Below are positions 1,797 through 61,861 of a stretch of 64,000 nucleotides of DNA, one piece after another. The stretch comes from Moniliella sp. 'wahieum' (taxonomy: Eukaryota). Positions within the stretch are counted from its first letter, which is position 1. Every line of letters begins with the position of its first letter. The notes beneath the pieces were generated by a model. That model had not been told where the DNA came from. It worked only from the letters and a program-made list of their open reading frames with translations, and did not search any database. Made by a program: the position numbers and the translations under genes. The stretch is from assembly GCA_003971905.1 (NCBI GenBank), contig RSEE01000033.1, forward strand, positions 124,001-188,000, written 5' to 3'.

Positions 1797-1858
1797 TTGA
1801 AGCTTGAAGCTTGAAGCTTGAAGCTTGAAGCTTGAAGCTTGAAGCTTGAAGCTTGAAG
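1797..1858. repeat. (TTGAAGC)n heptamer tandem repeat, 8 perfect copies plus one degenerate
   Basis: Directly visible; every junction forms the palindrome AAGCTT. Confidence 0.95.
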
Positions 1859-2907
1859 TCTCTCGACGGAGATATTGCAGTACACTTCAGGCCTTCAGGT
1901 TTGCTCAAACCCCTGTCTCTCCCAGATAATGTGTGTTTGACTGAGTACTGAAGCCTACAGTAGCATCAACCCCTGAATCAAATTGAATCGAGGCTATAAG
2001 TGCCTGATCCAACAGTTCGACCCACGCACTTTTTGTCTACTACGTCTCCACCTTGCCAATCGCGCGCTCCACGCACAAGCTACGTTTGTTGAACGGCCTG
2101 ACAGACCCCCTGCCAGGGGGTGCGGTCAGCTGGGCAGAGGACAGGAAACAGTTGCGAGCAAATAAGGTATCCGTCGAAGGCAGGCCCCTGGCCCTCAGGC
2201 CCCTGAGGGGGCCAGACACCTGGGGTGTGTCACAGCTAAGTGTGGCAGCCGGTGGCTCCCACGCATGTTGTGGCTTACTGGAGCTCAAGGGGCCAATGGT
2301 GGTCCCACATCATGCATCATGCATCACGACGGCTTAGGCCCCACTTTGTAACACAGCGGCACAGCATGGGGCGACTCAAAAATTCAATTCAATTCAATTC
2401 AATAACCATCGATGATCGATGATTATACGAGACGCGCATCGTGAGCAGCCCAGGTATTACGGGGCGGTGGCGAGACCAGAACCGTCGCACTTTTTCAAGC
2501 TCGAGCTTCCTCTTAGGCCTTGCATGTTCACATGTTCACACCTGCCGACTGTACCAGTAAGGACCGGCAGACCAGAGGGGGTTGTTGCACGGCAGGTGAA
2601 TGAAGCTTCATTCCATCATGCAGGTAGGGAGAACAGGACAAGGGACAAGAGGGTGTGTGGTTAGAGAAAACATTCATGATGAGCAGGAAACAGGAGATGG
2701 GTTCTAGATGAACTGGCGAAATGCCAAGAGGGTAGTAAATGGGGTAGCAAGACGCTTCATTCCTCTGGAACCCAGACCATGAAAAGGGGAAGCACGGTGC
2801 GATAGAGAGAGAGAAGGAAACAGTGCGTTGGATCAACCGTAACACATTTCGTTTGCCCTTGGGCGAAAAAAAGGACCAAGAAGCCCAAGGAGGACAGCGA
2901 GTGTCTC

Positions 2908-3569
2908 TTAGATCAGGGCAGCCGCAGCCACACCGACAACGCCAGCAATCGCAGCCGAGGCCACACGGACCGAACCGGCGGACGACTTGGACGAGCTCGA
3001 GGAGGCGGGCGCCGAGCCAGCCGAGCTAGCGTCGCTGCCCTTGGAAGCCGAGGTGGCGGCACTCGAGGCAGGGGGGCGGAGCTGGCAGGTTCCGAAGCGG
3101 CAGAGGAAGCGGCACCACCCGAGCCCTGGGCGGAGCCCGATCCACCACCGGAGCCAGCGGTGACGGCGGGAGTACCACCCGACTGGCCCAGAGCGCCGGT
3201 CGAGTCGGTCACATCAAACTGAAGCGACTTGCCAGCAACGCTGGCAGGAGGAGTGAACGTGTAGGGCGAGTTGGCGTTCGTGACGGTTTGACAACACCAG
3301 TTTGGGCACCGTTGGCGAAGGTGTGAACGACCAGAGTGTAAGGGGCCGATCCGCCGGACCACTTGACCTGCAGGGGCACGCCGGTGATGAGCGTAGTGGT
3401 GGGGGTGATCCTGGAGAACAGCGGAAAGGAGAGGGTAGGTTAGTATGACCCGGTGCAGCGAATGGGAGAACACAAGGGGGTGAGGGGGCGACGGTACGCA
3501 CACGGAAGGGCCAGCGGCCAAGACGGCAGCGGCAGCAGCCAAGAGGACAGAGAGGTGGAAGAACTGCAT
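2908..3569 (-). CDS. Small secreted Ser/Gly/Ala-rich, probably GPI-anchored cell-surface protein
   Basis: ATG at 3569, signal peptide MQFFHLSVLLAAAAAVLA; intron 3411-3501 (GTGCGT..ACTAAC..CAG); exon 2 VITPTTTLITGVPLQVKWSGGSAPYTLVV..., Ser-rich stalk, hydrophobic tail ASAAIAGVVGVAAALI-TAA; needs ~2 indel corrections. Confidence 0.8.
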
Positions 3570-3674
3570 AGCGAGCAGAGTGGGAGGATGCAAAGGAGCG
3601 AAGGGGGTGTGCGACGCAGCAGAGGAGGTGGGTGAGAGAGGGGAAGGAGCGAGGATTGGAGGCCGTGGCGGTGC

Positions 3675-3681
3675 TTTTATA
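3675..3681 (-). promoter_or_regulatory. TATA box (TATAAAA) of the GPI-protein gene
   Basis: Canonical TATAAAA ~105 nt upstream of the ATG, followed by a pyrimidine-rich leader. Confidence 0.6.
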
Positions 3682-5170
3682 TCGAGAGGGCCCGGCGTGT
3701 CAGAGACTGGATGCGCAGAGCATACATAGGCTGGGTGAAAGAAAGCCAAGCGGACGGGCAAATAGCAAGTCGCTCCGAGGGACACTGGCTGGATGCGAGG
3801 GCAGGGGCGGGCGGGAAAGAAGGCGGTGGATGATCGTGATGATCTTCGAGCGGCAAGCTTTGGGCGTCGTGCAGGGAGGCCGGTGGGGGAGGAACCGGAC
3901 CGGTGACCGGTGAGAAGGGGGGACGGGGCAGTGTCTGTGGCGCTGCCTGCCACGTCGAGCGGACGGGCAGTGCAGCGATGGGGGCCGTGGTGGTGGCCCG
4001 GCGTCCGGCGGCACGCGGAGATGCGGCGGCGTTTGAGGCAGCGCCAGAGCGTGTGACTGGGGTGGTGCCGCCGCGCGAATTGCCTAGCGCTCTGGTATGC
4101 AAGGGAGGCAGAGTGCATCGCAGGCGTAAGATCTAAGAGCTGGACGATGCGATCGGTGCGGCTTGGGATAGCCATGGTGCGGATGCGTGACTGGTGACGC
4201 GAGCAACGTGTCCAGCGACGCGATGGCGATGATGAATAACGGCGAGGGAAGCCAGTGGTGAATCGGGCTGCGTGGCGTTGCTCTCTGCCGCCCCCTGGCA
4301 CGCCGGGCGCATGTGGGCGCTCACGCGCTCCGTGCTGGCTGCCCGCCTGCTCGGCTGCCCACATCCCAGACGCGCTTGGGTGCGGCCGCACCAGGCCGCA
4401 CGCCGTGCCTGCCGCCCGCAGCCCTACACAGTGTCGAACTGTGGGGGCGCCCACCCGCGCGCATCTGGGGCACTGTGGGATGGAAGGTGTGGGATCGGCG
4501 CTGGCCTCCGACAGCACGGCGCAAGTGCACATCACACCGCCTCCCCGCCACCGCCTGCCTAGACCCCGCCCGAGCTGCCTCCTCCGCAACAGCCAAGAAG
4601 GCAGCGCGTCGATCCAGGTGGGGCCAGCACAGGGCCCGTGTGCGCGGGCTGCCCGCCCCTGCCGCCGCACGCTGCTCCCTGCTCCTTCCCTTGCACCTCC
4701 ACCAAACGATTGTGTTTGGCAAACGTTTAGCTCAGCGCGCGCTGAGCTCAGTCGCTGCGATGCTGAGGGTGACCGATGCCAGTGAGGCCTCAGCCTGAGG
4801 CCTCAGCCTGAGGATCGATGAGTCGATGCGATGATGCATCATGCATTGCATCATCCACATCGACCATCCATCAACCATCCATCGACCATCCCATCCCATC
4901 CTCGTGCTCTGCGTTTGTCCCATCAAAATTTATCTTGAAGCTATCCGGACCCTCCCTTGTTGGCGCCAGAAATGAGGTGGCCGTAGGGGTGCAGGTGGAA
5001 ATGACCGAACCACGCCTGCGCATCAACGCGAAGCTCGATTCACGCTTCACATGAACCATGAACGCGTGAACGTTCGACTTGAATGTTGAACGTGGTGAAA
5101 CGTTAATTTGAAAGTTGAACCATGAGTCAACTGTAGATTGAACCGTTTCATCCTGTTTGCCCCGTTGGAT

Positions 5171-7973: not shown

Positions 7974-8814
7974 TGTGACCACTCCGGGATAAGGCCTGGT
8001 GGAGAAGAGGCAGCGGGCCGAGGTTGCCAATGATCCAGTTGGGGTATCTGCGTCGGTGGCAACGCAGCACGCACAATAGGGTTGTGCATGACCGGCCTAG
8101 TCCCTCACTGCCATTAATTGCGCCACAGTTACAACGGTATTGCACCCGCATCCTAGGGTTACTGATTACCCAAGCAATGAAATGCACTTTTGCGCAGCAA
8201 GCAAATGTGCGTCTTCGTGGTTGGTTGGTCACCGGTCACGCGTCACGCGCGGTTACTTCCGACTGATATAATTTCGGCGGGCTACAACATGCTCAACGCT
8301 GGACTCTTGACTGCCTGGGGCGAATGTTCTGATCCTGTTCTCACGGGTTTGACTCTTACCTCCCTACTTGGTCGTCTTCAATGGCGTTGGTTAGGCGTTG
8401 ATGCTGGGTAGTAGGACACCATTGGTAGTTGACCTGATGGACACCTCAGATGAAGGGAGGAAGAGTCAGCTAGTCAGGTGAGGTCCTTATTTTGGCAACG
8501 TTTGGCACGTTCAGTCGTCCAAGGTGGCCATGTGTTGCAAAAACCGCGCGGCCAAATCCGTTGATGAGGAATGTCTACCTGGCGCCTAGTATGTCGAATC
8601 TTTGGTGCAATAAAATGGCAGAGTCCAACTTTTTTCCCATGTCCGAATCCTCCATCTAATCGGGTACTACTGAAGCCCTCCGTATGGCTTCGAAGCTAGT
8701 AAACCCGAAAATGCAGGAAGGAGCTTGTTCGAGCAAAGCACGGTCGAGATTACGATGCTTGATTGGACCGTCAAGGAACTAGCACGGAAAACACGCTTCT
8801 GAGAGCGTTTATAA

Positions 8815-8906
8815 GCTTCAATGGGTTAGTGGTATACTACATCGTTGCCAGACAGCCTAGTACCTGTGAGACATCGATGACAGGGGTTCGATTCCCCTTT
8901 GAAGCA
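8815..8906 (+). tRNA. tRNA-Gly(GCC) with ~23-nt intron (8851-8873)
   Basis: Acceptor GCTTCAA/TTGAAGC+A, D-loop AGTGGTA, anticodon stem CATCG/CGATG with TT-GCC-A, intron after position 37, T-arm AGGGG-TTCGATT-CCCCT. Confidence 0.9.
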
Positions 8907-8912
8907 TTTTTT
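8907..8912 (+). terminator. Pol III oligo-T terminator of the tRNA gene
   Basis: TTTTTT directly after the discriminator base. Confidence 0.8.
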
Positions 8913-9981
8913 GGTACATCAGCTTTGTCTCTCCGTCAACCCTCCCTACCTACCTGCGTGTTCTCCAAGTTGGACGTGCCGAGTCTAAGGGTGGCTCCCG
9001 TGTTCGAGCACGGTTGGCCCAGTCTCTCCTGATGAATAGGATCTCCGCTATTTTCTCGCTTCGCTTGTCTTTGCTCCGTAGCCAAGGGCCCGTGACAACT
9101 GACAATTCGATGCCGCAGAGGCCGTGCCGGGATATGCCTTTGACCACACACACCGCCGCAGTACTACTAGCGCGATTGCATCACCCTCGCGGGTCATCAG
9201 ACTCGAAGCCCCATCAAGGCGTCGTCAGTCGCTGCAGGCTTCGTAGTCCACCGTTATTGACTGAATCTCTCTATTTCCCAAGAGCAAGTATCGACTATCG
9301 GTCGCCCCATGGCCTAATCCGTGGAGGGATCTGGTAGGCGGAGAACGGTGAATCAGTGGAGACCATGAGACCCGAAATCCACCAAGATAACCAGGAACCC
9401 GGAACCAATAATAAGCCACTGAGCTTGGTTGATTTACGCGTTTACGGCGGGTGGCTGTATGGGCCACAGCATCCTAGACTATTGGGAACGACCTCATGCT
9501 AATACCATAGGCTTGAGGAGGCAGGATGAAAAGACAGTGTCAAATGTGGCAAGAGAGACGAACAGCGCCAGGCTGTATGAAAAGGACAAGGCCACGGACG
9601 GGACAGGGGAAAGTGGGGACCACTTTTCCTCTGGACAACCGTAGCATGAGGTCCGAGAAAATCGGGGGGAAAGAGAGGCCCAGGACACCCGTGAACGGGG
9701 GCGAAACCAGAATGACGAACCGAGAAACAAAGAATAGCGAAAACGCAGTAAAAGCGTGGAGAATCTCGTCACCAGGGCGAGAGAAGATATGATTGGAGGG
9801 CAGACATGGGTAGAATTTGAGGGGCAGACATGGGTACAATCACAGCCACGGAGCCATGTGGGTCTCAGCGCGGTAGGTCCACCGTGCTTGGTATGAACAG
9901 GGTGCAGTGAACCCGCCCAGTAGGTCCCAGAGTAAGACGCGACACAAGAGGAATCCCGGGAACGGGCGAAAGAGAATCCGC

Positions 9982-10734: not shown

Positions 10735-12366
10735 GGTGGCTACTAAAGAGAATGGAGGGTGGGCAAGGACGGAGTGGGCAGAGGGCAGGGACGGAGGGGG
10801 TGTTCTGGCTAGCAGAAGAGGGGAGGGGTGACAGAAAGGAGCGGGTGGTGGTGAAGAAAGACGCGACGCTGGCGGAAAACAGAGGCTGGGAGGGTGGGCT
10901 GAGGTGGGCGAGGTGCGCTCTGCTGCGCTGCGCTGGGCGGGTGGGGGGGGGTTCGTGCCAGCCTCGCCGGCGCGCTCCGGCCGAAATCGGGCGTGCAGCA
11001 GGAGGCCAGTGTGATGCGCGAGCCCCGTGCATGCTGCAAGCACAGGGCACAAGCATCATGCATCATGCATCAGCCATCAGCCATCATGCCCACCGGCACG
11101 GGCGGCTCTTGGCCTGACGCCTCGCGGCGCTGAGCACACCGGGATAAACCCGAAGGCGTACGGCCTGTGTGTGCCAGCGCTGATCTGGATCGGCGGGGTG
11201 CACCCGTCGCAGCACAGCAGCCAAAGCGCACGCTGGCCCGCTGGCTCTTGTGCGTTTCCAACGTCACGTTGGCAGCACGGGGGCAGCCACTCCCGCTGGC
11301 GATGCAAACTGAACACTCGCGGGTCTACCAGTGATTCGTGAAGATTCAGTGGAACTGCACTCCACTGCAACGTTCACCACATTCAACCAACCGAGCATCG
11401 CTCCGCATGGGGACAGCGTTGTGCCCGAGAGCGAGCGGCTCGCTGTTGTCACACACACTCGCTCCCGTCCGGGGCACCACAGGGTACCCCACGCGGCACC
11501 CCCCCGGCACCACACGTGCCACTTGGGGAGCACGCATAGTGATTGGGGTGGCTTATGTAACCCACCCGACGCGTCGAACAACACGCACCATTCCAGCAAC
11601 CATCATGCATCAATGGGCGATTGCAAGTTTCAAGGCTTCGTATTTCTTCAACTTGAACACGGCCTGCACGGCGCCCATCAGCAGCATGTGATGAATGGGG
11701 CCCGCTGCACGAGCGCCATGAGCCTCATGCGTGAGGGCATTATCGGAATCGGCCTCTCTCTGGGACAGCCGCCTTCTCGCTTTTGCTACTTCACGCGACA
11801 CACCACGCCGTCAACGTCAGTCTGGACGTATATATGTTTCCTGCTTCCGAATATGGTTCCATTACTTCCTCATGGGACACACAGTCTACGCCCGAGAAGG
11901 CTCCTGTCATCTCCCCACATGTGTACCTCTGCGTTTATACTAGGATGACCTCGCCATGATCAGCTCGCTAGAACTGATAAAGGTGTACATGTAAGCCTAC
12001 ATCGACGGCCAAAATGTACTTGTTGTTTGTTCTTTATCATTCACGCACACGATGAAGGGTGTGGCATCAAAGAGGCACAGATGCAAATGAAAGATGCCGT
12101 CAAGTGCAGCAACGGAAGGGGGCGGAAAAGTGATTGCTACAGAATGGTGGCATTGGATACGACAGCAACGAATTGTGAGTAAAAGGAAGAGAGAACAGTG
12201 AATGTATTGGGGTGCATATGGGCTAGAGAGTGATGATACAGAAGGCGTAATGGAGGGTAATAGGGAGGGGAGAAAACAAGGCCAAACAGGGATCATCACG
12301 AGGCCTGTGTTTTCTGAGGTGACAAAAACGAGTGCAAGGGTAGAGGGAATGAACTTGGCAGGTATA

Positions 12367-17084: not shown

Positions 17085-20000
17085 TGCCTGCCGTCCAGAG
17101 CCGAGTCTGGCCTGTGGCAACAGAGGGCTGTGCCCTGCACGGTGGAACCGGCCTCTGCCTGCCGCTTTTTTGCGCGTCCCTGGAACCCCGTCTTGGAAGC
17201 CGCTGGGTGCCCTTGTGTGCCCGGCTTCCCCCCGCAGCTCTCTCCCTGATGCATGAAAGTCCCCCCCTCTTTTCCTCTCCACAGCAGAACAACTCTGCCA
17301 GGCACTATTCCTCTGTTCGTAGGCCCACTGCCTCTCGCCTTGTTCATTCTTGCGCTATGGAGATACCTGTCAGAATGTCCAAGTATGTGTCGGGCGGCTA
17401 CGCACACAACCTATTACTGGCGCATGGCGTACACACCCATGCTATAGGCGATGGAGGGGCGAGAGGGTCTGAACAGAGCCATACGCCTGCGGTTGCAGGG
17501 CTCGACCAACAAACATTCCCTTCCTGTGAACGATATGCCGTGGCCACACGATACCCTGCAATCAGTTGGCAGCGTTGCTTTTTAGGTTGTGACGTGCAGC
17601 GAGGTACATTGTGGTACGCTGAGAGGAACGGAGATGATCGATGAGATGATTCACTCAACCAGTCCCCCCTCGCTCTCCCACCACGCAGACAGTGCACCGC
17701 GCACGCGACCGTGAACTGTGTGCCGCAACCACACCTCGACGGCCCACAGGGTCTCTCAGATCTCAGCCATGGAATACAGCCAATGATGCCGACTGCCCGC
17801 TTCCCTCCGAGCGCCCAGCAGACAACCGCGGTGCACGTGGACCTGGCAGAATCACGCATTTGCATGCTCCCACTGCCCGCGCCGGACCGCAGCGCAAGAC
17901 ACACCGGCCCAGGCCGTCAGGCACTCAGGCATCGAATGTCGACGGTTGCCGACCCCGACAGGTTTCAGTTAAAAGGGACCAGGAGGGTCGAGCCCGGCCT
18001 TTAGCGGGATAGCAGGCGTTAGCACTTGGGACGTAGTGCCCCCTGCACTCCTGCGCGTGGTGTGTGGGCATGGGGCACGGTTCTACAACGCGCAACGCCG
18101 GTATTAGTGACTACTTCTGTCACGGGTGTCTCTAATGACTAGCGGAAAGGGACCAACAGTAGGACCGGTCTCAGATGGCGTAAGGAGGTTACATACTTCT
18201 ACGCTCGGCTGGGGCGCCGCCTAGTGCCGCCCTGTGCCGGCTCGACCACTTTCAACCGACGGCTGCGGATATTGCACGGCATCATGCATCTCGACAGCAA
18301 GCGGGGTTGGGTTACTTGCGCACATACTCAGTCCTGTCCCTATTTGCGCCGTGCGCGTGACTAGACTCTTAATGACTTCATTTCGTGACTGGCGAGTGAC
18401 TGAGGATCTGAGGACTTCCAGCATCCGCATCACCATATAGCAGCCAGTTACTATTTCACAATTGACTAGTGAAAAACGATAGCAAGAGTATCGAGTTTAC
18501 TGAGTACACAGTGAGGCAGTAGTGCTAGTGAGGCACTGAGTCAGTCCTGAGGCTCAGGCAACCTGATCGATGATCGACGAGAGGGGCTTAAGGGAAGGTT
18601 TTGATGCCACTTTTGTAACCTGTACGATGCAGCAGTTTCTCGAACATGTGACAACAGAGATCGTCGAGTATATAGCCCGTGGCACCCATAGGCTACCATA
18701 TCAGCGCATCAGCACTCAGCGGGCTCAGCGCTCGGCCTCAGCGCTACAGCCCTTGACACACAGACCGTGTCTGTTGATGCTGCATTAGACCAAGGCCCAA
18801 AAGAGTGCGCTTGTACACCGCTGTAACATGTAACAGGCTGAACTCAACGCTTTTCGGCCCTTTCACCCCTTCCTCCCAACACCAGCACCCCCATCAAACT
18901 TGTCGCGAGACCACAAACGCTCTCAACACACACTTTCTAATAATTAGTAACCCCAAAAAACCCTCTCCATTATCTGCTCTTCACTCAGCTCAGGTTTCAG
19001 GCCCTTCAGGCCCTCTCTGGCTCAGTGCTCACCGACCACTTTCAGCGATGAAACTCATCCGCATCACCGTGCAATTTCCAGACGTTTTGCATCTACGTTC
19101 TACAAAACCATACAGCGACGACGACATTCTATACGCTTTTCTATGGGTTACTTCAACACTGGCAGGTCGCCACACCTAATGATGTTGGAGGGATGGCCGT
19201 GACGCATGACGCGCAATCTCATCAATGCAGACGTTCACCGTACCCATCGAAACAGCTATAGCTTTGTGCAAGCAAGTGTATACCACCACAGCCATAGATG
19301 GTTGTGTTTGGGGTAGGAGGGATGCTGGGGTTGTCCGGTGGGGAGGATCGAGCACGACGGTACAAAAAAACGTGGTTCCACACGACTTTTTGAAACCTAA
19401 GAATGGGGCCTGTGTATGTGTGTGTATGGGCGGTTTTTAACGTTTAACGTTTAACGGTTGAACGTTAAACGTTAGATCTCACGCGTTAGGCGTTGCGGGT
19501 CAAGAGTTAGGAAGGCAGGGGGGACGGCTAACTGTAGCACAGGCAACACACAACGTGTAACGTGTAACCGCCAGTTCGTCAGCACCTTGTCAGTGACTAC
19601 TACTACTGTGTTAGCGCTTAGCGCTTGGCAGTATAGAGCGAGACGGAGCGACTATAATGCTTCCCTCTGGCCTCTGAGATCTGAGGATGGACACAACAGT
19701 TGGGCTGTGGGTGTTGCTTCTCGTGTGGGCGATTCCCACGTTTATCCCTAAGCTTAAGTTCAAAAGTGAATGCTCAGAGTAACGTTATGGCGGCTGAGAG
19801 AAGCTCAAGCTCAGCGCGCAGGCTGAGCAGAGCTGAGATCAGCTACTGCATTCGTACATTGCAAGCCCTTCCTTGGTAGCTACCTCGCGAGTTATTATAA
19901 CCGTGGTTGTTGAACGTTGAGCGCGTTGAGCGGCTGAACCTCAACCAGGCCTCAAGCCTGATCCTGAGCGCTGAGTTTGAGCTGAACCGTTGACCCTGAG

Positions 20001-37938: not shown

Positions 37939-37988
<50 letters not shown>

Positions 37989-41462: not shown

Positions 41463-41538
41463 CTCTTTCTCTTTCTCTTTCTCTTCTCTTTCTCTTTCTC
41501 TTTCTCTTCTCTCTTTCTCTTCTCTCTTTCTCTTTCTC

Positions 41539-41569
<31 letters not shown>

Positions 41570-41624
41570 CTTTCCTCTTTCTCTTTCTTCTTCTTTCTCT
41601 TTTCCTCTTTTCCTTTCTCTTCTC
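41463..41624. repeat. Polypyrimidine (TCTCTT-like) microsatellite
   Basis: ~160 nt composed only of C and T. Confidence 0.95.
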
Positions 41625-47494: not shown

Positions 47495-50179
47495 ACTGGG
47501 ATCGGCAAGAGAGGAGGCGCGGATGCGGCCTGAAGGATGCTTGCTGTGGATGCCGATTGTGGCAGTCAACCAGCCTGCCTGGAATGGTGCGAGCAGTAAT
47601 CACTAATCACGCAATGTACAGCATGATGGGATCTGGGAGACACAACGGGCTCGTTGAGTTCAACTTGAACGCTCATGTTTCAACGTCTCAACCTTCACGC
47701 GTCACTCGTCACGCTTCAAGCTGTCATCTGCACAGCCAGTGGGTCTTGTGTGCAACCCCGTCAGTACCGTCCAACGGATTGAGGCGGCGGTGGTACGAAA
47801 TATGTTCCCAAGCCCCCAAAGAGAAAAAAAAAGTATATCCAGCGTACTACCGTAGTGTCTAGTGCAACTTCCTGGCCTGTGGAAGGGAGATTGCTTCGGA
47901 TGCCGACAGGTATTCATTCAGGCTGCATGGAATGGCGCCTTATATACCAGAGGAGAAGGAGAAGCTAACACACGGTAGACCACGCGTGATGAGGGGAAAG
48001 AGACACAAAAGGGGGCAAGGAAGATCTAGAACAAGGATCATACCCACATCCTGTGGGAATGTGTGTGTGATCCGTCATGGCCTATTCCATGTTTGTTCCC
48101 TTGAACCAAGCATGCCCTGGTGAGCTATAGTACTAGACCAGTTGAGACGACTGTGCAGCATAGTAAAGGAGCCATCAGAGGTTCCCGAGGATGTAAAAGG
48201 GAATTAGTCGAAGGGGGGGATTCAAAAACGTCAATAAAAAAACAAGTGTACTATACACTCTGGGGCATGGCGGGGAAATTTCCCTTGGGGCTTCAAGAAG
48301 CTTGAAGCTTGAAAGCTGTGAGCTTGACTATCAATTGCAGCTCAAACATATGATTAACGTGTTGAACACGTTGAACTACGTCTTCGACCCTCCGGGCCCT
48401 TTTGCAGCTTCACCCGCTTCATTATAGTCATTGGTTTCACCCATACACTTTCGCATGCGGTTCCCCCGCTTTCAACGTGTTCAACGTATACGTTCGACGT
48501 TCATATATCATAGGTCATCTGATCCTCAGATCCTGTGTTTCAGCCTGAGATCCATAAGAGAAACAAGACGCCTATAAGATCCGTGAGACGACCTGAGATG
48601 AGCTAAGAGAAAAAAACGTCACGAGGGCAGAGAGATGCATCCTGCATCCCTCTCCCTGTGCGAATCAACCTATATACTTTCGCTCCTGGGCTGCGTCGCG
48701 AGCTTGCCTGAAAACTGCATGGAGGTCATGCAGGTCGTGGCTTGGCAACTCAAGCAACTCAACGACCGACCAGCGCAGTGGAAGACGCATTAGAGTGTAC
48801 TATAGTAGCGGAGTCCTCTATACAAGTGAGAAAAGCATTCCGGCCCCTGATGTGATGCATAATGGTCAACGTCGTCAGCGCGCCCAAACGCGCCAACGTT
48901 CAACTGTATACCTGAGTGTCCGACGTCACTGCCGGTGTGGGACGGGGAATGCGGGGGATCCAACCCCATGCATGGCTCAGCGCTCATCCCTATTCCATGA
49001 CTTTTTGATGCCTGGCTTGGTTAGTGACTAGTAGTGCCAGCGACTAAGTAGTCAAGCTTCAAGCTAGCCCAGTGAACTAGTGAGTACATTAAGTACGGAG
49101 TACGAAGCACTGCAGTATCCTGAGTGTAGCTAGTGAGTTGAAAAGCTTTTTCACTATTAGTGACTCACTCCGCTTCAATACTCGTTGCTGGTTCTTGGAG
49201 GCTGGGCGCTGGATGCTGGATGCGGGATGCGGGATGGTACGTTTGATCTCCCATGCGAGATCTCCCATGTCACGGGCCAAGCAAAACAGAAGCGCTGTAA
49301 GCTAATCAAGGCGCTCCCAGCGCTCCGCCCCGCTGATAAGCCATCCACCCCAACCCCAACATCAGCCCCAGTACCAATACCAACACTAAAAAGCAAACTG
49401 CAGAAACAAACAATTGGCGCCATTGGCTTGGTCCATGATGCATGATGCATGACCTGTCTCGTTGGCCCTGGCCTTGCCTTGGCCCTGGCCTTGCCTTGGC
49501 CCTGGCGCTGCGTAGAGGCCCAGGCGAGGAAGGAGCTACGATGGGCACGGCTAAGAACAGAAGATGAGGCCTGAGCGGAGCGGGAGGATGATCGAAGGAG
49601 ATACGGTATGGCGCCGAGACCAGCTGCATGGTAGGAATAGTGCTAAGGGGGAGGAGTGGGAGGCCAAGCCTGCGCCAGCCAACGTGCCCGTTGCGCTTCC
49701 CGATCGATCCGCCGATCCGCGCCAAAGCAACAAGAGCAGCATGGCCCGAGCCCGCCGACAAACGGACGGCTCGCCTCCACCCTCGCCGTCAACTGACTGG
49801 GCAAGAAGCGTGGGAAGCGTAGGGGCACCGCCGCAGTACACGAGGGTACGGTAGTACGGTGGTACGGTGGTACGGGGAGAAGCGAAGCTGGATGGGGCAA
49901 GTGCAGGGGCACAAGGAGGCAGTGCGTGGGTCCAGAGGGGAGCAAGGAGTAAGACGATGGGGGCCAGAGCCAGTGTGTGGGGGGGAATCTTGGATGTGGG
50001 CTTGACGATAGAGTGAGAGAACAAGAAGAAGAGACGAAACAAACAACCCACAACCCCGGAGCGCGAGAGGAAAAGCGCACCGGCGGCGGCCAAGGCCAAG
50101 GCTAAAGCTAACGCTAACGTGGAAGTGTAAAAAAGTGTAAAGTGTAAATGGAACGTGGAACGTGGAACGTGGGAGCTAC

Positions 50180-51051: not shown

Positions 51052-52376
51052 GGTGGCGGGGGCTGTGATGGGGGTGCGTTGGTGGTGGCAGCGGGTGCGT
51101 GGCGGGCGGGGGAGCGCTGGGAGAGCAGATGGGGGTGGGCACAGGCTGCTGGGCGAGGCGCGCGGCGGGCGCCTTGCGGGCGGTGCGGTTGGGTGGCATG
51201 GGCGAACGGAGGCGGGGGGGGGGAGGGGGGAGGCAGAGGCAGAAGGCGAAGGCGAAGGCGAAGGCGAAGGTGAAGGTGAAGGTGAAGCAGAAGCAAACGC
51301 AAAGGGTGGGAGTGGCGGCAGAAGGGCGCCAAGCAAGCAAAACACTCTACTCGTCCCCAACAGCCAGGCGTGCCTGCCTTTGCGAGGGGCTGAGGGCGGG
51401 CGGTGGGCGGTGGCCTGAGCCTCCGGGCAGGCGGCGACCGATGAACGAACGTAGAGTTGAACGTTCAGTTCGACTTGGGCAACCGCAATCGTCGACTGAG
51501 CAGCGGGAACGCTAACGTTATGAAAGGCACCGCAGCCACGCCACGCCAGCGGCTGGGACGGTGGAAGCCTTGCCTTGCCCGACGCTTGGCTTGAAGCTTC
51601 AAGCTTCAGGCGAAGCTTCGGGCCAGTGGGAGCAGCGGCGGATCGGATCACGAACCATGCCTGCCCAGCCTCTTCCCCATGCCCCAGCCGCTGACGCCTG
51701 CGCGTGTAGCACGCGGTATCGAGGCAGTCCTCCGTCCTCCGTACCAGTCCGCCCCTCTGCACGCATCCACGCAGACTCAGTCCTCATCCCCCCAGTGGCG
51801 GCCCACCCACACCCCCACCCCACCCGCCGCGCACCCGCCACGCACTCGCCCGCTGCTGCCACATCACCCGTCCCATCACCCATCACCCGCCGCCCGCACA
51901 CGCACACGCAACACTCCACCCCTCCCCGTCCATCGCCACGCACGACGCACCCCAGCCCCCAGCTGCCCAGCCCCCGCGCCCCACCACCCACCGCCCACTT
52001 CCGCCCGCCAAACCCCAAAGCAAAACCGCCGCACCAGCCGCCGCGCTGACGTGGCTGCTGTTTTGTTCTCGCCACCTTCTACCCACCCGCCTGGCGCTCA
52101 CGCGCCCGCCCGTGACGTGACGCGTGACACCCCCGCCCACATCCAGGCGCCTCGATCCTAGCACGCCTCAGCGCCTGAGCACGCCGGAGCACCACCAATC
52201 AAAACGTACTAGCTACCAGATCTCACTGGGGCACAGGGGGGTTACGGTTACGTGGTGAGTAATAGTGAGTACTGCATGAGTCTGAACCTGTCCCAGCCAG
52301 TCCACCGCCGACAGGCGCCAGGCCTGAGAGCCTGAGCCTGAGGATCGCACCTTTCCCCTCCCCTGGGGATAGGTAA

Positions 52377-52422: not shown

Positions 52423-54756
52423 CCCGTACCGCGGTTGCGACGAAGCGCCGAAAGAGTCGTGAGATCTGAGATTTCGGTTCTCGATCTTAGATTCTCACAT
52501 GTGTGATGCAGATGCGCCTTTCACCAATTTCACCACTCGACGCACTCCGCCCTGCCCAACCCTATCTTTTGTTTTTTTTGCACCCTCTGCCTCTGTTCTC
52601 CCTCTGTCCCCTCTGTTCTCTGGGCCCTGTCCCGTGTTTGCTCGGTGGGAATGCAGCGCTGCATAGCTTGACGCGCGGCTGTAACATGTCCGGGCAACCA
52701 GCGACAGGCAATTGCGCTCACTTTGCCATGGTGCATGACGCGCATGACGCGCATGACGCGATTGACGCAATGACGCATGGGGCGGCGGGCGGCAAAATTC
52801 ATGTGGATGTTCAACACGTTCAACGTTCAATATTCAATGGCCAATTATGGTTACTGGTTACGTGCGTATCATGAACAGGAAACCTTTTTTGGCCTTTTCA
52901 ATCGGAGGCCTGCAGCGACTGGGTCCACCGGGACTCCCATCGGAACTACCGACGGGCCCCAGTCGTTAGGGCATTGAATATTGAAGCTTGAAGCTTCAAC
53001 TTGAATGAGCACGTAGGCCTTTCGGCTTCGGCCGTACGGCCTCACGCACCTCAATGAATGTTGAAAGGTGAAATTCAAAATGTTTTCAAGCTCAGGCTGA
53101 GCGGCTGAGCCCCGCTGCAATTAAAGGAAAAACTGAACCGCTTGAACTTTGAACTTTGAACGTTGCTTGAACCTTCGAACCTGTGGTTGACGATTGAATA
53201 TTGACGCGTGACGATCAATGATCGGTGATCGATGATCCCAAGGCCAGGCGCTCAGCGCGTTCACTGAGTACAGAGCCATCCCCACGCTCCTTGGCAGCTG
53301 CCACCGACATGCTCGCCCCCCTGCCCGCGCCTCCGCGCCTCCCGCAGAACAGTTCCTGTTACCGCGGGGCTTCCGGCTGCTACGGGCTGCTACGGGCCGG
53401 CCGCGCTTCCGCCCACGGGCAGGCACAGGCATGCAGCATGGCTCGGGACCGCGGCTAGCCGTTCAGGCAACGAGAACGTTTTTGTTCAACTTGAACGTTC
53501 AACGTGTGAACGTCCAAGCAACGTGCAAGCTCAGGCCTCAGGCTGAGGCCTCAGGAGCCCTCAGGCCGCCTTGGTTGGGTTTCAAGGACGTGGAACGGGG
53601 AGCGAGGAACGTCGGGCGGCGGTAGGCCGCCGCGTCGCGCGCTCAGCTGAGCGCCTGTTGCATCCAGAAGCTTGAATTGCTGAAACTTGAAATATGAAAC
53701 AATGGCCAGAACGGACTGGGGAGCGTGGAGGGTGGAGAGCCGACAAGCCATCTCCATATGATCGATGACGCGTGACGCACGCTGACGCTGGGTGGATTGG
53801 ACCGAACAAACCGGTTTACGCGTTTACGGTTGATTTACGGGATTTACTTGAGTTCCATTAGATGTATGCCGTGTAGGATACCACGTACCAGCCTGCATCA
53901 ACCTGACCCAACCTGTACACTAACCGGTGCCACTCCAGCCACCACAGTCCATCCTATCCACCATTGACATCGCAACTAATTAAAGCAACCCCTCCCTTAC
54001 ATCTGCTTGGTTGCGACCGAGAACGAGACCCAAATGGAAGATCTGGGCAGCCTGATGGAGACCGACTGGAAACCTGGAGCACCTGCGCAGCTTGCGTACC
54101 ATTGTTTTGCCCCGCACTTCGTTCCTTACCCTAGAGCTGGCATCACGCGGATGCAATCCTACCATGGACCCGACTTGCTTGTCGGCCTTAGGTTGCTTCA
54201 GCACAACAGGGCCCATCGGAGCAGGGTAGAGAGGTTGGGCCTACTGTGCCTTTTCTACTTGCGCGTACCACGCTCCTGCGCCCGCGAAGGCATGAGTTTA
54301 CGCATCACGTACCCCATCTCACTCGGTCGGACGTTGATTCGCTCCGCTCCGAACCGAGCGCTGGACCCGGAAGCGCAAGGACGCTGTAAGTGGGAGCTTG
54401 GGTAGGATGGGTAGGACCCGGCCCAGCGGGGGGGGGCGGTCGTGGGTGGGTGGGAACGAAGGAAGAGGGATAGATCCTGTGCATGCGCACACACAAGCCG
54501 ACCGCGCACACGTGGGCGAGGGCACGTCTGAGAATGTATACCTTGTATATGATTCGTTTTGGTTCCTCAGGCTTAGGCCTCCTTACCGCCTCACCGTTCG
54601 TGGTGCCACCTCCCTCCTCCCGTGGGGAACATACGCACCACGGCGACCGACGCGTTCCCCAGCGGAGGCGAGGTCGGTCCGTTTTGGAAGAGGGGGGCAA
54701 GGGGGGCAATGCGATGCGATGCGAGGTCGCTTTCGCAAGGGTAGCGGGAGATTAAA

Positions 54757-54867
54757 TTAGGTTAGGTTAGGTTATAGGTTAGGTTAGGTTAGGTTAGGTT
54801 AGGTTAGGTAGGTTAGGTTAGGTTAGGTTAGGTTAGGTTAGGTTAGGTTAGGTTAGGTTGGGTTGGG
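54757..54867 (+). repeat. Interstitial telomere-like (TTAGG)n tract, ~20 units, decaying into TTGGG
   Basis: Directly visible; two internal irregularities. Confidence 0.92.
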
Positions 54868-57800
54868 TTGAGGCTACTGAATGGGCAAGGGTGCCAACAA
54901 GTTGGTTGGACTTGATTCTGTTGCGCAAGGAGCCAATGGAGAGGGGTTGGCTGGTGCGTTGCGGCAAGGGGAAAGAAACGTCAGAGCGCCAGTCACGCCC
55001 ACGCCGGATAGCCCAAGTGCCGACCGCTTGCCACCGCGTCCAGCCTTGGGTGCAAGAGGGCTGAGCCTTCAGGCTGAAGCCTCCCTCCGACCTCTCTCAC
55101 TCAACCCACCCACTTCCCTTCCTGGCGCGCTGGACTGAACGCGGGCTGACGCACTGACGCACTGACGCGACACCGGATCGGTGGGGTCGTTGGGTTGCCC
55201 TGGTGCGCTTTCATTCGTGCCAAGTCGGGACGTAGTGGGATGGGCCATCGAGAGAGGATCGAGAGAGGATCAAGAATGTAGACGATGGATGGTGCAATGT
55301 GCGTCCGCGTCTTTGTCCGCCTACGCATGGCGTACGCAGTGCGGTATTCAAGCCTCAGGCTGAGTCCTCCTGAGGCCTCAGGGTGGATGGGCGGCCCGCG
55401 GGCAGTCTGTCAACCATGCGAAGGAGGTTGAATGAGGACTGGTGGAACATCGAGCTGATGACCTGATGAGAACCGAGCAACTGATCTGAAAACCGTTCAA
55501 CGTGCGTGTCAGCGACCAGGGAGATTGCAGATGGGAGCGGCGTGTAGTGTGACTGCAGCAGACTACAGCTGCTGTAGCCCGTGGCTGTTCCCCTTGAGCT
55601 GGACGGCGTCGATGAGTATCGAGTGTCGAGTATCGAGTAGGTGGGTGTGGGGGCTGGTGGCTAGTGGCTAAGCTAATAGTGAGGAGGGAACAATGGAGAC
55701 AACTGGGATGCACGATGCAGGGCGAACGGTGAATGAGTGTGACAACCAAAAAGGTGGATGCAGGACGGTCCATTGCGTCATACATGTTCCACATTGCTGT
55801 GAGTCGGTTGACTGATCCACTGCCTCAGCCTCAGCCTGGGGCGGGCGAAAGCACTGTCTCAGTGGCAAGAGCGCTGCGAGAGCCAAAGACGGGCGGTTTC
55901 AGCGACGGAGGGCGAGCCATTGAAGCCATTGAAGCAGCCTAGAGAGAGCAACTCCATCGGGGTAGCCTCAGTGCTGAGGCTCAGTGTAGCGCACGGGTAG
56001 ACTGGTAGCGCCGACGCAGGCCAACGCCACCCTCCACGTACCGCATGGTCCCAGATGTGGAGCAGCCAGGGTGCTCCAGCTTCCAGGTGCTCCCCAAACC
56101 TTAAACCCCATATTAATTCGCCCGCCGCAACTCTAACTCTGTTGAACGTTGAACGTTGACGCGTGACGTGTGACATGTGACACATCCCACGTTGCGTGTG
56201 ACGGTGACATACAGACGGTGGCGGCCGCGTCCATTCAGCGTCTTCCCCGCGGTCGGAAGGAGCTATGGGGAGCGTTGTCCTTCAAGAGCTCGGAGCTTGA
56301 CGCATCATGTGCATGACGCATATGAGACGCACAAGCACATGCACAAAAGCACATGCACATGACGAATCGCTGAAGCCCTGAGGCTCAGGCCTGAGGCGCG
56401 GAGGGTGTTGTAACGAAGATGATTCGATGATCTCGGAAGTGTTTCTCAAATAAAGCCGTGATCGGTCCTGGGCTCCGAACGTTTGGGCCGAAGAAGACGA
56501 GCCGAGGCACCGCTGTGCATCCGTCCATGTGTAACAAACGTGCACGCAAGAGGCCGCCCGCATTGTACACAGCCAGCCGCTTCTCGGATCGAGTTCGCAG
56601 GCATGCGTCTCAACCAGTGTCTCGATCCTCTCTTGATTTGGGACCATTGGGAATTGGCCATCCAAGACGGCGGTGCAGCGAAGTGAGATAGTCTGAGATC
56701 TGAGGTCTGTGACATGTGTGACCACTATCCGCTACGACTGCATTACATGGAATGAATGTCCCACTGTTACAAAACATGAAGACTATGACATGGTGGATTG
56801 AATCACAATCCTGAGGTAGTCCATATCATAGTCTCTCCACACGCAAGAGAAAGATTATCGATTACGCGGTACGGGGGTGGAGTCTGCGAGAGAGAGAGAC
56901 CTGCAGTGGGTGTTAGGTATACCCTCCTCCTGTGACTGCATGTGACATTGCACATTGCGAGGCAGGGCAGAGGCTGTCATCATCCTTTTGACGTATACAC
57001 CCCGACACACACAGGTTTGGAGCTATACTTCCCCTCTCGCTTGAGAACGGTCGACTTTCAAAAACGCTCCTCCCTCCCCCCTAGTGCCGCACTAGCCCCC
57101 CTTGTTCTCGGTGATAAACGATAGTCCGTGGGAGTACTCGTTTCCTCGTTGTAAAACCGAACAAAGCCTTCTCTCTCCTCAGCTCGTGATCCGTCAAAAC
57201 CTCGTGCAATGCGGTGGGCTTGTGCGCCCGGTGCACATGGTTTTTCAGTTAGCTCTCAGCTCTCGGCACGCTCAGCCCTTTGATCTCAGCAATACAGAGC
57301 TCAAGCAATGATCATGACCATGAGATTGACAACTTTGATAAAGACAAGTGGTTCCTGTCAACGTTCGACGTTCGACGTTGGACTTGGCTTGGATTATGTG
57401 TGGTAGGACGGGATTGTAGATCAAAAAGGGGCTTCAAGCTCCAAGCTTCACATTCGCCACATGGCACATGTCCCTCCCGGCAAACAGGCGGGGGGATGGA
57501 AACGTAGTGCAATTGTATGAGTACTCCCAGGTGAGTACTGTGGCTGAACGATCACGTTGAACGTTGGTACTGTCACCCAGAAACCACGATATGCAGAAGG
57601 CCGACGGACACCATCGTTGATGATGGTCATCGATCATCGATCATGCACACGCAATGGGGAAAAACAAGGTTACCAGTGTGGCTGCGTCCCTAGGGGGCAC
57701 AGTACGAGAGGTAACCGGTAACCGGTAATATATGACATCGTGGGAGCAGGTGTCCATGTGGTCCAACGGGACGCCGATCGGGTTGGAGAGGGAGGGAGAG

Positions 57801-59469
57801 AGAGCGCGTTTGACATGTTGACATGTGGGATGCTCGCTGACGCGCTGACGATGCACATGATATGTGGCAGAGAGTGCGGGGGAAACAAGGGGATGCACAT
57901 GGTGTTGCATTGATATGTCTCCTACTCGGTGGGCGTTAGGCGCAGAGAGAGAAGGCCGTTACCAACGTGCGAGGTGCTGGTGCGCATACCATATTGGTGA
58001 GAGACGGACCCGGGCTGATTGACTAGGGTCTGCTAGTAGCGACTGCTTGGCGAGGATGAATACGAGTGCCGAGGAGAATGGCCTATCTGAAAGAGGAACA
58101 GCGACTGCGACGTGCGATCAGGGTCCAAACGTGCGAATCATGTGAATGTGGGAGACACGCAACAGCATATGGTCTACCGAGCGCCACAAGAACAGATATC
58201 TGAACTCAGATGAGTTGCCAGGATGCGCCGCTGTCCCAGCGACATGTCAGGCGCAGAGTGGCAGACTGCCCAGCTGATGTGCTGTTCGCACGCGTTGGGC
58301 AGAGCCTCAGGAGTTACTAGCTACTGCGAGTCATCACTAGTTATCGATTCTCAGCTGCTAGTTACTCTTGGCTGCTAAGGCCTAGCGATGGCTTGGGTGG
58401 GTTTGGGTGGATGGCTGCTGTGCACGCTGGCTGCGGCGGGGAGGTGCGTGATGTGTGACTGGCTGGCGCGGTGCGGGAGATATGCGGGGGCGGGGCAGCT
58501 GTGCAGACAGGGGCGCGGTGCGGGGAGGCCGGTGCAGCCAGGGTGTGCGAGCAGCCGTGGCGGCGGAATGGCCCAAGGCGAATACGCGCCGCCAGCCACG
58601 GGGGGCAGTGTGCTGCGGCAGCGAGCCCTCGCGTGTCTGCGTTGGAGCGGGCGTTGGGGGCGCGGGCTGCGGCTGCGTGCGCCTCAGGCTACACATGGTA
58701 CGCTCCCTTTCTCCTCCGCCTCCACACCGGCCCCCCGCCCTCGCTTGTTCTTGGCGGCATAGCGCTTATCGCCTCGAGTGCTCTCGCGCCCACCCCCACT
58801 CATCCATCCATCCGCCTCTCCCCCGTCGGAGAAGACACGGCTGATGTGCTGATGCGCACCCAGCAGGCGAGCTGTTCTGGTCTGTCTCGCGTAGCCTCCA
58901 ACCGTATGGTTGCGTGCACCCTCTCCGCCCCCAAGCCCCGCCACGGGGGGGGCGCATGGGCCAGGACCAGTATGTACATCGCCCGCCATGGCCGATGATC
59001 GATGAGGTCATTTGTCTTCGGGATCAGACGGTGGGGACAGCAGGCCAAGCAGTGCCCACGAGCGCGTGTGCTGGCGTGCACTGCCCCTCGGACCACACCC
59101 TGTCCGCCCATTCTGCTTCCATGTGGCCAGGCAACGCACAGTGCTCACGCTCAGCGCTGAGCGCGGGTTATACCGTCGCACTCATCCGTCATCCCGATCG
59201 CTTCTCTCTTTCATCTCAGCTCCCCACGCACGCCACTGCATGGGGCCAGTTGATGATGATCGATGAGCATCGTCTGCGCACTGGGCCGCAGGAGCAGCAT
59301 GCCCAGCCGACGCTGCTGCGTACGTGCCGGCTCACGCCTGCTGCTTCCCGCCGCGCCTCTGCCTCGGTCGGCCCTCGTCGACCGGCCTACTCCGGCGTCT
59401 GTGTCCACCAACCCACCCAATCCCCTCCTCCATAGCCATCACCTCCACCGGTGCACACGCACACAACCG

Positions 59470-59476
59470 TATATAA
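59470..59476 (+). promoter_or_regulatory. TATA box (TATATAA) of the aspartic protease gene
   Basis: ~120 nt upstream of ATG 59594, followed by a CT-rich leader. Confidence 0.6.
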
Positions 59477-59593
59477 CCCCCACCCCTCGCCGCCTCTCCT
59501 CGCCTCTCTCTCCCCACCCACCCAAGCTCCCTGCTCTTGCTCCCCGCCCTCCACTTTCTCTCCCACCTCTTCGGTCCGCTTTTCTCCTCCCCA

Positions 59594-60858
59594 ATGCAGC
59601 TCTCTTCCACATTTGTCGGTCTGGCTGTCGCGCTCGGTGCGCTGAGCGTGTCGGCGGTGCCCTTTGGCCCGAGCACGGGGCAGATTACTGTCCCGCTCAC
59701 CCGCCGTGCCGAGCGCAACTTCCGCCGCGCCGACGGGTCGATCGACATGGCCAAGTTTAACCGCGAGCGCGAGCTGGTGCGCGCCAAGTACACCCGTACC
59801 TTGGCCAACTACGAGCGCAACACGGGCTCCAAGCACCGTTTCGTCACCGGCACGGCTACCCCCGCCCGCCCGTAGCACGGGCACCGTCGACTTGAAGGAC
59901 GTGGAGAACCAGTCGCTCTGGACGGGCACCATTGGCTTTGGTTCGCCCGTGCAGGACATCACCATTGGTACGTCCCCCACCCCACAATGACCTTGTCTGG
60001 CCTGCTTTTGGTTTGCCATGTGCTGACGCTTATTCTTGTCTCTTGTCTCTGTGGTGGGGCAGACTTTGACACGGGCAGCTCGGACACGCTGGTCAACAGT
60101 GGTGCCTACACCCCGAAGTCTTCCTCCACGTCTAAGAACACGGGCACGTCGTTCAGTGACTCGTACGGCGACGGCACCACGGCGTCGGGCACGGTGTACT
60201 CGGACAAGTTGACCATTGGCGGTCTTTCAGCCGACAAGGCGTACATTGGTCTCGCGTCGCAACAGTTCATCTCGGGCGAGGGCAGCAACGAGGGCATCAG
60301 CGGCATGGCCTTCCCCAGCCTCAGCTCGTTCCAGCAACAGGAACCCTACTTTTACTCGTTGATCAAGGCCGGTGTGCTGGACAACCACGCCTTTATCTTT
60401 TCCCTCTCTGACTCGGGCTCGACCTTGACTTTGGGTGCGACCGACTCGAGCGCCGAGTTCACCGCGGTGACCGATGCCTCCTACTGGACCGTCTCGGCCT
60501 CGGTCGAAGGCACCAGCATCGACGCTGTCGTCGACACGGGCACCACGCTGATTGTGGCGCCGGTGAGCGATGCCGAGTCGCTGTACAAAAAGTTGGGCTT
60601 GCAGTACACCAACAGCAACGGCCAGGTGCAGGCCACGTTTGACTGCAGCTCGCCCCCTCGGTCAGCTTCAAGTTCGGGTCCAAGACGATCACCTTGGGCG
60701 ACTCGGTCTCGGCCGGTACCGACTCGGATGGCAACTGCGTCTTTACGGTGGTGGGTGAGGACATGGGCATGAGCTCGTGGATCACGGGTGACTCGCTTAT
60801 CGACTCGACTTCCAAGGTCATCTTTGACGTGGCCAACCAACAGGTCGGGTTTGCCTAA
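59594..60858 (+). CDS. Secreted pepsin-like (A1) aspartic protease
   Basis: Signal peptide MQLSSTFVGLAVALGALSVSA, propeptide, LWTGTIGFGSPVQDITI|DFDTGSSD, flap YGDG, GISGMAF, AVVDTGTTLI, WITGD..VIFDVANQQVGFA-TAA; intron 59968-60062. Confidence 0.95.
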
Positions 60859-61861
60859 ATGTCCCTCCCCCCCACCTCCCTTCTCTCTCCTGTGCGCCTG
60901 TTGCATGAACTGGGGACCTTGAGAGAGATGAGAGGGGTGCCCCAAAACCCGCCCCTCACCCCTCTCGTCTGATTTCTGTTCGCCGTGCAATAGGAGGCCG
61001 TCGCGCCTTCTCTTTCTCGATCCGATCGGCCTCTCCAGCGGACTTTGCTTTCTTTTGCCCTCCATGTTTTCCTCTCTCTTAGTTGGCTTTGTTGGCCCTA
61101 CCCTCAGCTAGCTGCTGCCCTCTGCACTCCTGGACCCGGCTGGTGGAGGATGAAGCTTGAAGCTTGAAGATCTAATGTTGATACGGATTGACGCCCACGT
61201 GCTTGCTTGCTACTATATAGTTTGTCAGTGCCCTGCTGGCTCCTCCTGCGCCCGCCGCTGTGCTTGGTCGACATGATCGGCATGATCCATGATCGACACG
61301 GTCCTTTTTACCACCAGCTCAGGCACGCTAGAAAACCGTAAGCACGTTGGTGCGAGACTGCTCGCTTCGCTGGGAACCGGCGGGAACCGGTAAGGCTGGC
61401 TGGCTGCCTGTCTGGCTGCCTAGCTCTATTCCATGAGCGTCGGAGCGCGGATGCTGGGGCAAGTAGCATGTAGCATGATGCATGTGTTACGCGGGCAAAA
61501 ATAGGAAATCGGGAACAGGACAAAGGGTAACATGTAACATGGGGCAGGGTAAAAAATGAATAATGGATCTCCGTGAGGAGCTACTATATGCGTTCGATCC
61601 GGTGGGCCCAGTGTGCAATGTCAAGCAATAAGGCCTAAGGCCAAGGCCATGCCGCCGCCAAAGATTGCTTTTCTCATAGATAAAAAACCAGCGCGTTCGT
61701 GTATCTGGTGGGCGCGTCAGTCCAGGCCAGCGGGCCGTATCCAGCCCGTTCAGCGACACGCAGACGCAGGGCATATACTATTCCCCAAAGCAATCACAGC
61801 GGGCGCGAGGACGAGGCGCCGGCGTGACCAAAGGTGTGTGAGTTTGTCTTTGGTCAGGGGG

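Follow-up and report, generated by a model that had tools for sequence, protein, structure and literature searches.

Palindromic heptamer junctions in the genome of Moniliella sp. 'wahieum', probable excision footprints of a cut-and-paste transposon

Why the intergenic DNA of a fungus should hold TGA or TCA triplets in exact seven-base register, with four bases between them that vary from patch to patch and are so often self-complementary, is the question raised by the 64,000-nucleotide stretch studied here (the window), positions 124,001 to 188,000 of contig RSEE01000033.1 of Moniliella sp. 'wahieum' (C33:124001-188000 in an assembly of 69.5 Mb and 223 contigs). An earlier note, made from the letters alone, had proposed either arrays read by a protein or the footprint of a fold-back or template-switch mutational process. 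We have found that the pattern is real, that it is present genome-wide and that it works like a joint of the RAG/Transib type, and we put at roughly 0.68 the probability that the junctions were left by the excision of a cut-and-paste DNA transposon, one that duplicates a 7-bp target and closes its flanks into flush hairpins of RAG/Transib type. Counts are based on the window together with sampled stretches, 264 to 983 kb in total depending on the test, the largest sample being 1.4% of the assembly.

The heptamer signature and its junctions

All 12 sites cited in the earlier note exist, the one at 1797 being off by one (TGA from 1798) and the first TCA of the one at 28033 lying 7 bases further in. 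In the window the arrangement T[GC]A-N4-T[GC]A occurs 166 times, as against 41-89 for every other spacer length from 0 to 15, and the spacer is palindromic in 88 of the 166, with 13 of the 16 possible palindromic 4-mers in use. Markov nulls of orders 3, 5 and 6, each simulated 60 times, gave mean palindromic counts of 4.0, 9.9 and 26.0 with maxima of 11, 21 and 35; thus the excess of palindromic spacers over background holds, with 88 observed against a maximum of 35 up to order 6. When 20 further stretches were added to the window (264 kb), palindromic spacers were found in 236 of 496 T[GC]A pairs and 29 of 77 T[AT]A pairs, compared to 3-8% in six other self-complementary triplet classes. A sample of 464 kb yielded 296 tandem runs of period 7, of which 142 consisted of an A-palindrome-T block plus one base (7.4 expected) and 4 belonged to the C..G, G..C and T..A palindrome classes (22 expected). 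Since only A..T palindromes are enriched, a general hairpin-driven growth of repeats is out. A genome-wide search with one 17-base three-copy pattern gave 2457 matches per strand, as against 0 with the reversed control.

To describe the junctions we write the target as ab-TNA-xy (NN-TNA-NN) and the reverse complement of xy as y'x', and call P bases the palindromic bases that join the two copies. Counts of the junction family exclude uninformative (palindromic) flanks, their nulls were obtained by permutation, and some of the +8 cases fit two labels. Of 356 lag-7 five-base duplications in 664 kb that start with T-N-A, 255 had as spacer the reverse complement of the two bases with which the duplication ends; the same rule applied to 37/200 (18%) in the C-N-A class and to 1-10% in the remaining 14 classes of first and third base. 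As the spacer is copied from the flank, any palindrome can occur, and all 16 xy dinucleotides were used, with AA and TA almost missing among isolated events (1 each, compared to 7.9 and 5.6 expected). The earlier description restricted the centre base to G or C; both serve, but any centre base works, P-type spacers being found in 100/138 TCA, 107/150 TGA, 29/39 TTA and 20/31 TAA cases. Pairs are mostly direct (palindromic in 154/295 TCA..TCA and 174/316 TGA..TGA), mixed-centre pairs are a minority (palindromic in 19/111 and 23/86), and pure arrays are short, with 397 of two copies, 57 of three and 8 longer.

Extension at lag 7 peaked at two bases on either one side or the other, with (0,2)=47 and (2,0)=53 against (1,1)=13, and the duplication ends sharply two bases from TNA. 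At 2-base P joints the P-joint fraction was 291/380 for duplications of 5 bp, 26/59 for 6 bp and 28/59 for 7 bp, and beyond this P joints vanish (8 bp 0/4, 9 bp 1/6, 10 bp 0/5), leaving a hard edge at 7 bp. The +7 junctions occur in two mirror forms, 111 and 100 (null ~17), and are accompanied by +8 junctions (26 and 18; null 1.3 and 1.1), +9 junctions, in which either side keeps the complete 7-mer (12 and 11; null 0.3), plain 7-bp duplications (28; null 1.1) and hybrid 4-base spacers (10 and 6; null ~1.5). The family of +7, +8 and +9 junctions and the hard edge together define the unit as a symmetric 7-bp target NN-TNA-NN, with T at -1 and A at +1 only and no further clear base preference. 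Each site is a duplicated ab-TNA-xy, in which one copy is whole and carries two palindromic bases and the other lacks 2 (the commonest case), 1 or 0 outer bases, and both mirror forms are equally common. In 764 kb there were 24 exact two-palindrome chains (48 when both strands are counted, out of 414 one-sided events), and in every one of them a left-hand event and a right-hand event at the same 7-mer predict the sequence completely.

The view that simple slippage cannot explain the pattern was borne out: birth of a microsatellite by exact duplication of the whole unit fails against runs of five bases with the (0,2)/(2,0) asymmetry and against nine new alleles, described below, that are not tandem copies. 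Later array steps are indistinguishable from slippage. A Top2-like 4-bp duplication with 3 P bases was likewise rejected (2/385 at TSA starts, S being G or C); a similar class with a non-T first base was raised (109/386), which can come from decay of the first T. In the window the whole set comprises 46 listed +7/+8/+9 junctions or array ends (1715-61640), among which are the following.

1715-1730: +9 junction of right-hand type, both copies of the 7-bp target complete, with 2 P bases between them
1787-1858: longest array, (TGA AGCT)n, with a left-hand +9 junction at 1787-1802 before it
1940-1951: +7 junction, left-hand type
2310-2326: three-copy array (TCA TGCA)
4127-4138: +7 junction on a TAA centre, right-hand type
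8464-8477: +8 junction, left-hand type
9433-9446: +8 junction on a TTA centre, right-hand type
11056-11072: three-copy array (TCA TGCA)
18564-18575: +7 junction, right-hand type
19400-20500: dense patch upstream of an alpha/beta-hydrolase-like gene, with events at 19611, 19909, 20065 and 20482
28034-28053: array (TCA ACGT) in a non-coding gap
41191-41213: mixed-centre palindrome (TCA ACGT TGA), then a +7 junction at 41202-41213
42730-42741: +7 junction, right-hand type
49436-49452: three-copy array (TGA TGCA)
51592-51608: array with one complemented centre (TGA AGCT TCA AGCT TCA)
52818-52838: two-palindrome chain, left-hand and right-hand event at one TCA
52973-52993: two-palindrome chain (ATAT then AGCT) at one TGA
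53193-53213: two-palindrome chain (ATAT then CGCG) at one TGA
56148-56168: two-palindrome chain (ACGT then CGCG) at one TGA
57627-57643: three-copy array (TCA TCGA)
57810-57823: +8 junction, right-hand type
61151-61169: three-copy array (TGA AGCT) downstream of an aspartic protease gene

Variation, age and location of the events

The first gene of the window encodes an aminotransferase whose nearest named proteins are those of Tilletiaria anomala (72%) and Tilletia (69-73%), which points to a smut-related basidiomycete. The gene is present in four copies, those on contigs C20 and C22 being 95% alike and ~78-81% alike to the others, and those on C17 and C62 ~90% alike, and related haploid sets, about four of them, seem to be present in the assembly, one pair being 90-97% alike and the others ~80%; they may stem from a hybrid, a polyploid or a mixed sample. 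Gene order relative to C17 and C62 (window 3180-64000) is patchy, as genes that lie ~61 kb apart here lie ~21 kb apart there and the intervening genes are shuffled. In the haplotype comparison close pairs were aligned in 46 segments (178.8 kb), two off-diagonal repeat matches having been removed. The 1575 one-base gaps in this 179 kb alignment, and the frameshifts in conserved genes over most of the window, point to an error-prone long-read assembly.

Indel sizes between haplotypes peaked at 7 bp, with 66 cases compared to 54, 52 and 26 at 5, 6 and 8 bp. The 61 clean 7-bp indels comprised 9 new +7 events, 12 array steps, 9 other tandem copies, 9 that overlap the motif with a short run and 22 that are unexplained. 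In the nine clean new +7 alleles the short form reads ab-TNA-xy and the long form ab-TNA-xy-y'x'-TNA-xy or its mirror, and none is a tandem copy; four +8 and two or three +9 events were also polymorphic. When 148 events in aligned regions were compared, 89 were identical in the other haplotype, 14 had 1-2 substitutions, 23 faced a short allele, 19 were rearranged and 3 were ambiguous, and the 23 short alleles indicate that the process is recent. The conservation among relatives for which the earlier note had asked was looked for between the haplotype sets and did not rise above that of the flanks. The substitution rate in motifs was 0.022-0.080 per position, not below the flanks (0.036), and 134 of 410 motifs were gapped, compared to 130 of 623 controls, so that motifs change as fast as their flanks or faster. 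A minor class of pairs with a complemented centre (73, as against 58 transitions and 20 other transversions) exceeds what the substitution spectrum suggests, C-G changes between haplotypes numbering 532 against 2785 transitions.

With coding and non-coding DNA assigned by a self-trained Markov model, events were found on 2 of 4910 coding TNA sites and on 254 of 19,633 non-coding ones, in agreement with the remark that the motifs stand almost only outside coding sequences. The rate per 1000 TNA was highest 5' of genes (18-19 events), lower 3' of them (5.6-14) and lowest within intron-like gaps (1.2). Events were also clustered, 114 of 234 sites having a neighbour within 300 bp (null mean 58). 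The orientation relative to nearby genes was not biased (91 and 87), which is what a symmetric cut predicts. Density was 0.34-0.66 per kb on all six contig groups tested, though the sets differ by ~20% in coding DNA, and 159 events in 400 kb of spaced stretches of large contigs give, once chance is removed, a rough ~25,000 in the assembly. Sites were re-hit at 16 times the per-site rate (48/414), and the cores of young retroelements held 0 events on 511 TNA.

Apart from the junctions, the window has a tRNA gene at 8815-8906, probably intron-containing, and an internal telomere-like (TTAGG)n tract at 54755-54865 within a long gene-free stretch. The ordinary microsatellites at 37896-39063 and 41463-41621 are long hexamer tracts of (CTCCAG)n type together with one (CTCTTT)n tract.

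Origin of the junctions

If the junctions are excision footprints, a dimeric transposase would insert at NN-TNA-NN with a 7-base stagger, by which the target would be duplicated. On excision each flank would be sealed into a flush hairpin in the RAG/Transib manner, and the hairpins would then be opened by a host nuclease ~2 bases beyond their tip, which would leave two 3' overhangs of 4 bases each (xy y'x' and its mirror). End joining would mostly overlap both overhangs fully and keep one, which would give +7 junctions with a palindromic spacer, both forms equal in number; partial trimming would give the +8 and +9 junctions or a plain duplication, and a switch within the overlap of the overhangs would give the hybrid spacers (the series 111, 10, 28, 6, 100). 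We infer this overlap as the source of both the +7 junctions and the hybrids. Every scar would hold two fresh targets, and repeat hits, probably together with later slippage, would build the arrays and the two-palindrome chains. The scars appear to be neutral by-products.

Parts of this chemistry are documented in other systems. As described in the cited text of PMC5499845, MULE, hAT, Transib and RAG form flank hairpins that are opened by host enzymes, and Artemis, in the account of PMC2175297, cuts hairpins mainly at +2, leaving 4-base 3' overhangs. In the present genome we found 2 matches to Pol X and 1 weak match to the SNM1/Artemis family. The likeliest agent would be a low-copy element of CMC/CACTA-Transib type, of which none was seen in the sample. 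A low-copy agent could escape such a sample, as the active CMC element of Cryptococcus, CNEST, exists in only 4 full copies and was overlooked by Repbase, according to the relevant text of PMC12810828.

A number of results weigh against excision footprints of this kind. No inverted-repeat element with a TNA-centred 7-bp duplication was found in up to 983 kb sampled (1.4% of the assembly), and no transposase was seen in 79 scanned frames (72 of 123 picked open frames and 7 repeat read-throughs). Genome-wide there was no match to Harbinger (PF13359), MULE (PF10551) or Tc1/IS630 (PF13358), CACTA (PF02992), Transib/RAG1 and KDZ not having been searched, and none to the hAT dimerisation domain (PF05699) or to Plavaka (PF18759), for both of which the control was equally silent. 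Joints that retain P bases from both ends numbered 0 among 190 informative 8-base spacers, the uniformity of the joints is far above that of known footprints, and the C-N-A class shows a mirror asymmetry (37/200 against 11/158, p=0.0016) that a fully symmetric reaction does not predict. CMCT elements have target duplications of 2-5 bp, not 7, as given in section 3.1.6 of PMC12730594. Finally, the direction of change, insertion rather than deletion, is inferred.

Further searches in the sampled DNA gave 2 matches for perfect inverted ends of at least 11 bp with 5-9-bp duplications, both unrelated, and 24 of 8172 TNA-centred pairs with inverted inner ends, mostly array-array or intra-retroelement repeats and none of them an element; TNA stood before a candidate 8-base terminus in 3 of 83 cases, roughly as often as expected by chance. 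The only mobile elements seen in the sample were retroelements. A young and abundant retroelement, with 898 first-look candidates and copies that are 94-99% alike and variably truncated, has one of its ends at 45403-45875 in the window, at L087-L116 and at L040; its read-through has reverse-transcriptase-like words, which we take to be of the non-LTR (long terminal repeat) type, and no Pfam match was obtained in its frameshifted frames. This element was rejected as the source, as such duplications as it shows measure ~7-12 bp and lack a TNA centre, and 30 aligned copies are without a 7-bp insertion. Copia-type reverse transcriptase (RVT_2) frames were present at L022 7500-8849 and L066 8719-9999, and several 180-230-bp TG..CA repeat families resemble solo LTRs. 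Loss of FEN1/XPG-family genes was also rejected, 12 matches being present, about three per haploid set.

It is also conceivable, though we consider it unlikely, that no element was ever inserted and that NN-TNA-NN sites in open chromatin are cut symmetrically, with a 7-base stagger, by a nuclease that is host-encoded or domesticated, the break then undergoing fill-in, hairpin sealing and end joining. The same junction anatomy would be predicted, and the recent activity (a short allele in 23 of the 148), the presence on all six contig groups, the re-hitting of sites and the lack of an element in 983 kb would all suit such an enzyme. However, no host enzyme is known to make a 7-base stagger and then seal the filled ends into hairpins.

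Somewhat less probable still is a polymerase fold-back or template switch, in which a 3' end at T-N-A folds, extends by two bases and resumes, or in which a 3' flap or snap-back intermediate is ligated. A fold-back on a T-N-A triloop was the explanation first favoured (then at 65%) and was lowered after the junction family and the 7-bp edge had been found. It accounts directly for the dominant +7 product, a T-G wobble would account for the C-N-A asymmetry, and snap-back synthesis does yield inverted templated insertions, as described in the cited text of PMC9303309. Nonetheless, the +8 and +9 junctions, the TNA-centred plain duplications and the 7-bp edge are all unpredicted by it, there is no reason why G-N-C, C-N-G and A-N-T should never serve, the 4+1 and 6+3 geometries were at chance (33/120 and 0/34), and hairpins of 7-9 bases are barely stable (0 to -0.1 kcal/mol). 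The suggestion that the pattern is the footprint of a mutational process was thus right in kind, but the 7-bp edge and the +7/+8/+9 family favour a staggered, symmetric duplication with hairpin repair over polymerase fold-back.

That the patches are selected binding arrays, in which a protein reads T[G/C]A half-sites 7 bp apart, is very improbable, and the binding code put forward in the earlier note is unsupported. The events are indeed richer on the 5' side of genes and are clustered, but an insertion preference for open promoters would be expected to yield an equal location bias; the spacer is simply the reverse complement of the two bases that flank TNA, any centre base is accepted, and the motifs have no fewer substitutions, and more gaps, than the DNA with which they were compared. 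An artefact of basecalling or assembly, in favour of which the indel-rich alignment could be cited, can be dismissed almost entirely, given that 89 of the 148 events recur unchanged at the orthologous position on contigs that were assembled separately and that coding DNA and young retroelement cores are nearly or wholly free of them.

Returning to the excision footprints, a wider proposal can be made, tentatively and with the balance of odds against it, that insertions above 3 bp in this fungal lineage have as their main source a hairpin-forming enzyme that acts on a 7-bp NN-TNA-NN target (an undescribed transposase of CMCT type long active at very low copy, or a host-domesticated one without an element), that this enzyme makes heptamer microsatellites from unique sequence, and that it may also underlie the 10-bp repeats of Ustilago maydis and a few metagenome junctions. 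If the junctions are indeed excision footprints, the scars would preserve a legible history of tens of thousands of excisions, from which target, stagger, hairpin geometry and end-joining outcome could be deduced in the absence of the element, and they would represent a non-slippage route to new tandem repeats. They would also provide a direct test of the long-standing idea that purged elements left behind the short repeats found in transposon-poor smut genomes; should there be no element at all, they would instead record an undescribed host mutational process. Motif finders, if the reading is right, will report such scars as promoter motifs.

Comparison with known systems

A description of this signature was not found in the literature searched, a body of text outside which most subscription journals fall. 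The closest joints are the coding ends of V(D)J recombination by RAG1/2 and those of Transib excision, which, in the parts of PMC2175297 and PMC5499845 that deal with them, have the same even-centred 2-base palindrome flush with the end of the flank, the other end being trimmed, and the same logic of 4-base overhangs. Unlike RAG/Transib (CMCT), the target here is 7 bp and centred on T-N-A, one product is dominant and P bases from both ends were not seen together; there are also tens of thousands of scars and, in the sample, no element.

The footprints of the hAT elements Ac and Hermes are odd-centred, with the complement at the junction. In the present genome odd-centred joints were at chance (0 in one test; 39/512 and 7/278 in another), and Ac-type joints were rejected. 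The hAT7 elements of Pucciniales, in the account of PMC12730594, do share with our junctions a 7-bp duplication in a basidiomycete and the flank-hairpin chemistry. As the CMCT duplication length and the hAT joint geometry both fail, the junctions were filed under neither. Footprints of Tc1/mariner elements consist of a TA duplication with a constant filler from the element ends, and were rejected in that the filler here follows the flank and no DDE_3 match was obtained.

A plausible kind of agent is represented by CNEST and CNIRT6, CMC/EnSpm-like elements of Cryptococcus neoformans that are low-copy and library-invisible in a basidiomycete; unlike the putative agent here CNEST duplicates TA, and the main text of that paper makes no mention of footprints (PMC12810828). 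Snap-back synthesis in synthesis-dependent microhomology-mediated end joining (SD-MMEJ; PMC9303309), and short-range template switching (compare PMC8604942), also give inverted insertions templated by the immediate flank, but with variable length and primer, whereas here there is one geometry and one target triplet.

In a set of 120 metagenome loci, each selected because it contains a (T[GC]A TGCA) array, P joints were found in 8/85, compared to 230/321 in this genome, so that the presence of such an array is not in itself a sign of the process. Three of these loci, L184 (3839-3860), L149 (4908) and L131 (3951), picked after the fact, had P joints in 4/5, with a two-palindrome chain in L184; their matching junctions are a lead only. 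The nearest printed idea concerns the 10-bp repeats of U. maydis, which occur genome-wide and were proposed to be transposon footprints (Laurie et al. 2012, as cited in PMC4081816, where their sequence is not given). The TCACGAT/TCGTGAT heptamer arrays that the earlier note ascribes to that species did not turn up in a literature search for the motif. Likened by description only, those repeats share with the junctions reported here a smut lineage, a transposon-poor genome and an abundance of short intergenic repeats, TNA-N4-TNA also measuring 10 bp.

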